From Nanobdellota archaeon (lineage in GTDB: Archaea > Nanobdellota > Nanobdellia > Pacearchaeales > GW2011-AR1), in contig JAHIRT010000032.1 in the NCBI GenBank assembly GCA_018818285.1, positions 1 through 63,152 of the forward strand: 63,152 bases of DNA, read 5' to 3'. Made by a program: the position numbers and the translations under genes. The notes below the pieces were generated by a model that ran no database searches, was not told the origin of the DNA, and saw only the letters and a list, made by a program, of their open reading frames with translations. This document shows positions 30,799 through 31,353 of the stretch, piece by piece. Position 1 is the first letter of the stretch; each line of letters begins with the position of its first letter.

Positions 30799-31353
30799 AT
30801 GGATTGTGAAAATAATTATCCATTTAATTTAATGCGTATGGAAGCTCAAAAAGCATTTATAGAAAGAAATTTAAGATGGGTTGCTTTGAGATTTGGATTG
30901 AGTTCTCAAGAAAAAGAAAAGTTATTTGGTGTTTTAGAGTTTGTGATAACAGATTCAACAAATTATGCAAAAAAAACTCCTCAAAAATACCAAACCTCTT
31001 GGAGATATCAAAGACTTTTGGGTTATAATACGAAGAAATATGTGCTAAGAGTTATGCAAAGAATAGGACAGAATATTAAAAAAAGTCATAATGCAAGAGA
31101 TGTTGTAGTTAAAGAAACTCCTGAAGATATCTGTATGAGAAAAGAAGAAGAAGAATTTTTAATGAGTAGCTTAAAGGAACTTGATTTAAGGGAAAGATTT
31201 GTTTTAGAAAGTCATTATGGATTAGATGAAGCTTATTATGGACATGAATTTAGTCTTGAAGAGATTGGAAATTCCTTAGGAATTACAAGGGAGAGAGTTA
31301 GACAAATTAAAATCAAAGGTTTAAGAGAATTAAACAATACAATTAGTTCTTGA
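30799..31353 (+). CDS. sigma-70-family-like protein (region 2-like plus region 4 HTH)
   Basis: The C-terminus [50 protein letters not shown] matches the bacterial region 4.1/4.2 pattern REREVLxLRFGL...TLEEIGxxxGVTRERIRQIExKALRKL. The N-terminal [14 protein letters not shown] resembles region 2.1/2.2 (LIExNLRLVVSIA). Confidence 0.6.
   Translation: [184 protein letters not shown]

Follow-up and report, generated by a model that had tools for sequence, protein, structure and literature searches.

A sigma-70-derived gene with a well-kept region 4 inserted in the chromosome of a Nanobdellota archaeon

Introduction

An open reading frame (ORF) of 184 amino acids (aa) in a 63,152-nucleotide stretch of Nanobdellota archaeon DNA (GenBank assembly GCA_018818285.1, contig JAHIRT010000032.1; hereafter the window) is, judged from its sequence, a specific descendant of the sigma-70 family of bacterial initiation factors. 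The encoded protein, here called the sigma-like protein, carries the end of region 3.2, region 4 (the sigma-4 domain) and a vestige of region 2.1. Its gene is an insertion between two conserved archaeal genes, is confined to one species-level cluster and is under relaxed constraint. We regard it, with a probability of about 0.5, as the remnant of an exapted sigma factor whose role, if it has one, would be that of a small helix-turn-helix (HTH) DNA-binding regulator acting through sigma-4.

Bacteria and archaea initiate transcription with unrelated sets of factors; hence, sigma-derived genes in archaea are natural experiments on an initiation factor cut off from its polymerase. Proteins of the sigma-70 family (fam00359) were described in DPANN archaea and are "particularly prevalent in Woesearchaeota" (Castelle et al., 2021, PMC8204110). 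In that survey, mis-binning was ruled out, no anti-sigma factors were found, and the mechanism was left open (PMC8204110). Because DPANN sigma-70 proteins were already on record, the present finding is less new than a preliminary description of the window had implied. It is a further case of the known phenomenon, with a distinct anatomy (vestigial 2.1 and intact 3.2 end and region 4) and a very narrow distribution. A catalogue also exists of archaeal HTH proteins whose domains are of the sigma region 4 or LuxR type (PMC5413776).

Results

The C-terminal domain matches sigma-70 region 4

The ORF starts with ATG, and its position and C-terminus are exactly those given in the preliminary description. 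NCBI labels it "hypothetical" in one metagenome-assembled genome (MAG), and the allele of the other MAG "sigma-70 family RNA polymerase sigma factor". Pfam profiles returned Sigma70_r4 (PF04545) at aa 125-178 (E=7.8e-13; 48.2 bits against a gathering score of 24.1) as the sole match. GerE/LuxR (PF00196), Sigma70_r4_2 (PF08281), Sigma70_r2 (PF04542), and Sigma70_r3 (PF04539) gave no match even at E<=10, and PF00140 (region 1.2) gave none. The comparison with GerE/LuxR had been chosen beforehand, and its outcome, with Sigma70_r4 as the only family found, rules out a generic LuxR/GerE HTH protein. The NCBIfam models of RpoS, RpoD, SigC, and FliA aligned solely over aa ~105-182 and far below their equivalog cut-offs (47-53 bits for the RpoS/RpoD models against cut-offs of 354-394). 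The sigma-70 superfamily model TIGR02937 reached 38.6 bits, under its cut-off of 42.9.

A sequence search of the PDB returned sigma factors only, in alignments that begin at 'KETPED', the acidic linker behind region 3.2 of group-1 sigmas, and continue through regions 4.1 and 4.2. The 4.1/4.2 loop of the sigma-like protein contains a three-residue insertion (AYY). When AlphaFold2 was run with a sigma alignment, sigma-4 was modelled with confidence (predicted local distance difference test, pLDDT, 82-95). In a Foldseek search, the modelled domain superposed on 1ku3, 1ku7, 1rio, and 4g6d with a root-mean-square deviation (rmsd) of 0.9-2.0 Å over 57-65 residues at 39-46% identity. Profile score and fold both bear out the preliminary assignment of the C-terminus to sigma-70 regions 4.1/4.2. 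For the comparison with Escherichia coli sigma-70, we assumed its C-terminal sequence and eleven residues that presumably contact the -35 element; the numbering agrees with the PDB alignment table. Ten of the eleven equivalents are identical (R554, L573, E574, T583, R584, E585, R586, R588, Q589, and K593), and the sole altered position is R562, replaced by H. Judged by its sequence, the domain is expected to have kept its fold and its ability to recognise a -35-like site.

The N-terminal two-thirds retain the region 2.1 helix

A full-length sigma hidden Markov model (HMM) and a region-2 HMM were built from bacterial sigmas that had been retrieved solely by region 4 similarity, so that their region 2 could serve as a probe without bias. 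When all filters were switched off, just one additional match appeared, which placed aa 14-30 on the start of region 2 ('eeareelieanlrlVv') at 7.1 bits; when aa 1-104 were shuffled 5000 times, 2 of the shuffles scored as high. The local Smith-Waterman score against a position-specific scoring matrix (PSSM) was 29.5, compared with 12.3±1.9 in shuffles, and was reached by none of 600. With the N-terminus alone, hhalign placed aa 12-76 on regions 2.1-2.3 (P=0.0013). MAFFT set aa 14-30 on the IE(R/A)NLRLV column block of bacterial sigmas, in the colinear position.

Beyond this helix, the similarity fades. Against the region-2 profile without 2.1, aa 31-104 scored no better than chance (a score equalled or exceeded by 455 of 600 shuffles), and no Pfam match was found for this segment. 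MAFFT puts Y64, W68, and Q71 on conserved region 2.3/2.4 columns without statistical support, and the core-binding DLIQEGNxGL motif has no counterpart in the alignment. The spacing from 2.1 to ETPED is ~75 aa, compared with ~140 aa in RpoS-like proteins, so that ~65 aa appear to have been lost and the remainder to have diverged past recognition. A database search with the N-terminus alone gave no matches and also missed the known same-species allele.

Structure prediction gave a confident model for sigma-4 only. The single-sequence AlphaFold2 model was too poor for use (pLDDT 49.9). In the model made with the sigma alignment, the N-terminus is helical (pLDDT 50-73), and full-length Foldseek matches had rmsd >15 Å; as the alignment biases the model, a sigma-2 fold gains no independent support from it. 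A complete but divergent sigma-2 was also considered, since aa 12-80 can be laid over region 2, and was rejected on the chance-level result for aa 31-104; for the same reason, only the 2.1 helix is counted as supported. Of the resemblance to regions 2.1/2.2 proposed in the preliminary description, the 2.1 part stands and the 2.2 part finds no support. Neither the remainder of region 2 nor any part of region 3 could be detected, so that the protein is not a complete sigma factor.

The gene is part of an archaeal chromosome

Related and allelic loci were compared under the labels L001-L047, where L004 is JBDRLA010000033.1 of NCBI GCA_043813535.1 and L047 is an allele from JGI. The identical protein, with taw1 and the gene for a conserved 116-aa protein (p116) as flanks, occurs in ENA ERZ27247128:k141_613749 (a 137-kb contig) and in a JGI 3300014656 contig from another project. 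Slightly different alleles with the same neighbours occur in ENA ERZ27247121 and in the MAG GCA_043813535.1. The same junction in four independent assemblies means that the segment is not a chimera, and the native codon usage also speaks against mis-assembly. An assembly or binning artefact, in which a bacterial fragment was joined to archaeal DNA, is scarcely credible; only the bacterial affinity of the domain itself speaks for it, and against it stand these assemblies and a GC content (0.29) and synonymous codon usage indistinguishable from those of the neighbouring genes and typical of the window.

Taw1 (Radical_SAM and Wyosine_form domains) ends at 30647, 151 bp before the sigma-like ORF, in close agreement with the 150 bp of the preliminary description, and the archaeal context described there is real. 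The window contains an archaeal RNase P RNA (7059-7442) and genes for Spt5-NGN, L11, L37ae, prefoldin, IF5A, SepF, FtsZ, and RFC. The reported spt5 is confirmed by the Spt5-NGN match; the reported rpoP is plausible, being a CxxC...CxxC zinc-ribbon ORF directly after L37ae for which no Pfam profile gave confirmation. Elements resembling TTTATAA/TATAAA lie 27-34 nt before the ATG of many window genes (taw1, 22476-22871, 32611-33369, and 38010-39059), and a comparable element, TATAAATTT, precedes the sigma-like ORF. This element suggests a putative archaeal promoter and a leaderless or short-leader transcript. Because GC content and codon usage are native and a TATA-like box lies at the usual distance, the gene is considered resident and plausibly transcribed by the archaeal machinery. 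The features of the locus are listed in Table 1.

Table 1. Coordinates of the sigma-like gene, its parts, and its surroundings in the window.
Feature	Position	Strand	Remarks
Insert between convergent taw1 and conserved 116-aa gene	30648..31364	.	Comparison with related loci
TATA-box-like element TATAAATTT	30765..30773	+	~34 nt before ATG of sigma-like ORF; putative
Sigma-70-derived ORF	30799..31353	+	NCBI MBU1136263.1, 'hypothetical protein', Nanoarchaeota archaeon MAG
Vestigial sigma region 2.1 helix, aa 14-30	30838..30888	+	Region-2 HMM, PSSM, hhalign, MAFFT
Helical segment without assigned affinity, aa 31-104 (place of regions 2.2-3.1)	30889..31110	+	No detectable sigma similarity
Region 3.2 end ('ETPED' linker) and regions 4.1/4.2 (sigma-4 HTH), aa 105-180	31111..31338	+	Profiles, alignments, AlphaFold2, Foldseek
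Hypervariable 3' end	31309..31361	+	Two allelic tails, one ...RQIE(R/S)KVLEKLSAISSLIF*; clustered substitutions and frame-restoring indels
Conserved 116-aa gene (p116)	31365-31715	-	Convergent with taw1

The insertion is restricted to one species-level cluster

An exhaustive HMMER search of 1.84 billion representative proteins gave 3328 matches at E<=1e-3. Among the matches listed, the only full-length relative is a 95%-identical allele of the same species; the others lie within aa ~50-182, mostly ~105-180. A word-indexed search of 5.8 billion clusters agreed in yielding no further full-length relative, and across about 15 billion proteins the sigma-like protein is confined to a single species-level cluster. 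No relative was found among the GTDB species representatives or in IMG/VR, and a scan of JGI metagenomes added just one further partial allele (L047). Phage records and PHROGs gave generic sigma-4 matches only, and PADLOC gave only the sigma-4 of MzaA. There is no integrase or transposase among the annotated neighbours, and no convincing flanking repeat was seen. A viral or mobile origin is disfavoured by these results; of the "viral or mobile remnant" suggested in the preliminary description, the word remnant fits, and the viral or mobile part finds no support.

Synteny shows how the gene is placed. Forty-two related loci were fetched with Taw1 as the anchor; the closest have 56-66% Taw1 identity and are labelled Nanoarchaeia, Pacearchaeota, or Woesearchaeota. 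A sigma-like ORF is present in none of the 42, and the GTDB scan gave no orthologue among the representatives. In the closest GTDB relatives (L005, L006, L008, and L013), the gap from taw1 to the 116-aa gene is 24-64 bp. As close relatives have the two genes adjacent, the sigma-like gene is a lineage-specific insertion. Elsewhere the same junction is occupied by unrelated cargo: L007 has two small ORFs there, L009 three metabolic genes and L010 an M50 fragment, and L011, L014, L044, and L045 each have a single orphan ORF. The junction is therefore a variable spot across relatives labelled Pacearchaeota or Woesearchaeota. Since codon usage is native and no close donor was found, the transfer was probably not recent, or the donor was equally AT-rich and is unsampled.

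Some observations on the compared loci are added here. The 116-aa protein has 60-72% identity to its counterparts in many DPANN relatives, where its gene is always convergent with taw1; it gave no Pfam, PHROG, or PADLOC match and is a conserved protein without assigned function. The junction ORFs of L007 lie at 5135-6149, and the second resembles a nucleotidyltransferase by eye. L007 and L014 (JAFCCB010000020.1 and JAFCCB010000033.1) come from a MAG labelled 'Candidatus Dojkabacteria bacterium', the name of a bacterial candidate phylum, and show archaeal FKBP/IF5A/M50/Taw1/p116 synteny at 56-67% protein identity to the window. The two contigs appear to be archaeal and to have been binned with a bacterial genome by mistake. 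The label 'uncultured Methanosarcinales archaeon', borne by several other relatives, also seems doubtful.

The gene varies between strains far more than its neighbours

Over 9.8 kb, the L001 strain and the window share 99.67% identity, and 20 of the 32 differences fall inside the 555-bp sigma-like gene. Fifteen of the 32 lie in its last 50 nt and the stop region. Ten neighbouring genes have a proportion of non-synonymous differences (pN) <=0.003, and the ratio of pN to the synonymous proportion (pS) is about 0.06 in the flanks, which are strongly constrained. Among unique events in codons 1-170 of the sigma-like gene, ~9 nucleotide changes are non-synonymous and ~2 synonymous; at a site ratio of 4.4:1, this gives pN/pS of about 1 over four alleles. 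All five alleles keep the frame open despite indels at the 3' end. The gene is now under relaxed, possibly diversifying, selection.

Between the M50 gene and taw1, L004 carries an extra ~1 kb (L004:5553-6831; window ~29641/29629), with a reverse transcriptase (RVT_1, E=1.3e-16). This insertion lies 1.4 kb upstream of the sigma-like gene, and its reverse transcriptase contains 'PLGNLTSQ' and 'YVDD', motifs which we take to resemble those of reverse transcriptases from diversity-generating retroelements. Such an element was considered as the cause of the hypervariability and rejected: the substitutions in the sigma-like gene show no specificity for adenine, and the 16.5 kb covered in L004 yielded no template/variable repeat pair.

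Discussion

Proposed origin and competing explanations

Horizontal transfer may have brought a bacterial sigma-70 gene of group-1/2 type (RpoD/RpoS-like) into one DPANN lineage, where it came to lie between taw1 and the conserved 116-aa gene. There, sigma-4 would have been kept intact, including region 4.1, the 4.2 HTH, and nearly all the residues that read the -35 element, and the region 2.1 helix would have been kept with it; region 3 and regions 2.2-2.4, which bind the core and melt DNA, would have been lost or altered past recognition. The resulting protein lacks the regions for core binding and DNA melting and so cannot be an initiation factor. If functional, it would most likely be a small sequence-specific HTH DNA binder, in effect a regulator of bacterial type that is made from an archaeal TATA-type promoter; its helical N-terminal part would serve as a scaffold or dimerisation module. 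The data show which domains are present, that the gene is an insertion, that it is narrowly distributed and that constraint on it is relaxed; DNA binding, expression, and a regulatory role are what we infer from sequence features. The insertion is species-specific and drifts fast, and the protein is therefore probably at most a small DNA-binding regulator. Among the roles named in the preliminary description, an HTH regulator from an exapted sigma is, with the remnant, one of the best fitting; the anti-host factor also named there is neither supported nor contradicted by the results.

Several results weigh against a regulatory role. By the Nei-Gojobori method, pN of the sigma-like gene is 0.026-0.036 and pS about 0.03, and L001 and L004 differ by 8 non-synonymous and 0 synonymous changes in it. 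This pattern within the population is at least as compatible with a gene that is dispensable or decaying as with a working regulator. TTGACA occurs 32 times in the window, compared with 46.6 expected, and is not enriched but, if anything, under-represented; no operator candidate for the protein was found in the window search. Past selection on sigma-4 is suggested by its good preservation next to an unrecognisable sigma-2/sigma-3 region, and with one species available, long-term constraint on sigma-4 is inseparable from the inheritance of a donor gene that was already truncated.

The strongest competitor is a functionless relic, in which a horizontally acquired sigma fragment drifts neutrally towards loss. 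In that case, the intact frame and sigma-4 would owe their survival not to selection but to the short time elapsed or to the robustness of a small helical domain. We consider such a relic possible, at clearly lower odds than the exapted remnant. It accords with pN/pS of about 1 across four alleles beside flanks of about 0.06, with the concentration of differences in this gene, with the restriction to one species-level cluster, with a junction that carries differing accessory cargo in different relatives, and with an unrecognisable N-terminus. It is less easily reconciled with five of five open alleles, some of them with frame-restoring 3' indels, with the conservation of all but one DNA-contact residue, and with a sigma-4 that is 40-50% identical to bacterial sigmas when sigma-2/3 is unrecognisable. 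The promoter-like TATA box and the fully native codon usage, which implies long persistence without inactivation, also count against it. A more novel setting is unlikely: sigma-4 might read TTGACA-type operators and so modulate TBP/TFB initiation, or the protein might be a fast-evolving decoy on the beta-flap of a bacterial neighbour's RNA polymerase (RNAP). If true, a bacterial initiation-factor domain would have been rewired across the domain boundary.

Still less probable is a cross-domain effector or decoy, by which an episymbiont would act on a bacterial partner: sigma-4 would bind the beta-flap tip helix of bacterial RNAP, or activators and anti-sigmas that target sigma-4, and the rapid evolution would reflect conflict. 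At the hydrophobic and flap-facing sigma-4 positions F563, I565, and L598, the protein has the conservative residues Y, L, and L, and raised non-synonymous change together with two alternative C-terminal tails is a pattern of conflict genes. DPANN archaea are also generally symbionts (PMC8204110); however, the hosts of the DPANN episymbionts described there are other archaea. Neither a signal peptide nor secretion-linked genes are evident among the annotated neighbours, no relationship to phage or defence families goes past a generic sigma-4 match, and pN/pS of about 1 is not proof of positive selection. The exapted remnant has also been set against a genuine minimal sigma with two domains (sigma-2 and sigma-4) and the size of an extracytoplasmic function (ECF) sigma, working with a bacterial-type RNAP encoded elsewhere or, in a novel way, with the archaeal enzyme. 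This we hold to be highly improbable. In length (184 aa) and in the order 2.1 ... 4.1/4.2, the protein does resemble two-domain sigmas of the ECF type. With hhalign and MAFFT, aa 12-80 can be aligned to region 2 so that Y64, W68, and Q71 fall in conserved columns, and one allele bears a sigma factor annotation. However, Sigma70_r2 is not matched, TIGR02937 stays under its cut-off, aa 31-104 are not significantly like 2.2-2.4, and DLIQEGNxGL is absent, so that the proposal is largely refuted. In addition, no bacterial rpo genes were seen in the 63 kb window, where the transcription genes are archaeal only. Sigma-70-type promoter matches around the gene are at chance level (8, compared with 7.9 in shuffles), TTGACA is under-represented, and the gene is under relaxed constraint. 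A sigma factor in the functional sense is therefore not supported.

Comparison with known systems

The sigma-like protein falls outside functional sigma-70 factors, group 1/2 sigmas, ECF sigmas, and LuxR/GerE proteins. It does possess a sigma-4 domain and is a sigma-70-annotated protein on a DPANN contig with archaeal markers and no anti-sigma neighbour. With group 1/2 sigmas (RpoD/SigA and RpoS), aa 105-180 align fully to the 3.2 end and regions 4.1/4.2 at about 40-50% identity, and the ETPED linker, the LxxRER...GL motif of 4.1, and TRERVRQI of the recognition helix are shared. Unlike these factors, the protein has no detectable regions 1.2, 2.2-2.4, 3.0, or 3.1, is 184 aa long rather than about 285-620 aa, contains the AYY loop insertion, and belongs to a host of TBP/TFB type. 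The likeness to ECF (group 4) sigmas lies in the size (about 170-200 aa), in the order of an N-terminal helical domain, a linker, and a C-terminal sigma-4, and in a sub-threshold full-span alignment of TIGR02937 over aa 63-180. It differs from them in that region 4 is of the PF04545 (group 1-3) type rather than Sigma70_r4_2, no ECF-type region 2 is present, and no anti-sigma gene lies among the annotated neighbours.

In annotation and context, to which the comparison is limited, the DPANN family fam00359 is similar: sigma-70-annotated, in DPANN genomes, with archaeal marker flanks and no anti-sigma. If members of that family are complete sigmas, the present protein differs as a truncated, degenerate offshoot. 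As to its placement within DPANN, NCBI labels the genome 'Nanoarchaeota', and the nearest Taw1 relatives are labelled Pacearchaeota or Woesearchaeota. Archaeal regulators of bacterial type (Tfx, LuxR-solo-like, and HTH_10/Bat; PMC5413776) are likewise small, have a DNA-binding module of the same HTH superfamily as sigma region 4, and represent the functional class proposed here for the sigma-like protein. Unlike Tfx, LuxR/GerE, and HTH_10 proteins, the present protein matches Sigma70_r4 only and keeps the 3.2 linker and the 2.1 helix; the retention of these sigma-specific flanks points to a direct, comparatively recent sigma ancestry. Small bacterial or phage fusions found among the search matches (P0048, P0130, and P0140; 194-204 aa) are of the same size class and have the C-terminal module from ETPED to 4.2, whereas their N-termini (Xre-like HTH by eye) are unrelated to the N-terminus studied here. 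These fusions show that sigma-4 is reused outside complete sigmas.

At this locus, the melting and core-binding parts are gone and an autonomous sigma-4 survives with its -35-reading residues nearly all kept, in a gene that behaves as a strain-variable accessory gene. Counts of DPANN "sigma factors" that are based on Sigma70_r4 matches alone can mislead, as the NCBI label of one allele illustrates. If the protein does bind DNA or polymerase, it would offer a tractable 184-aa model for sigma-4 exaptation; if it does not, it would be an ordinary relic of horizontal transfer.

Other observations in the window

Two tRNA genes are longer than canonical tRNAs, tRNA-Phe (7905-7998, 94 nt) and tRNA-Pro (23708-23793, 86 nt), and the over-length therefore suggests archaeal-type introns. 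Between the M50 protease gene and taw1, at ~29387-29527 (L001:6632-6772), public annotations call an extremely lysine-rich ORF of 46 aa (MAKKKAAKKKKVVKKKK...), which may encode a small basic nucleic-acid-binding protein or be a spurious call in an A-rich spacer.

In the IF5A-like gene (27232-27621), the window differs from L001, L002, and L004 by four substitutions in 7 nt (27423-27429). All were counted as synonymous or nearly so, and local pS is 0.06 in a region that is ~99.7% identical; the cluster suggests a small patch of recombination or multi-nucleotide mutation. At 34627-34677, the 3' end of a cytidylyltransferase-like gene (ORF 34607-35155, - strand) contains a perfect 12-nt tandem repeat, TTTCTTCTCTTA, in 4.2 copies. 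The copy number apparently varies between strains, because L002 and L004 encode 178 aa, compared with 182 aa.

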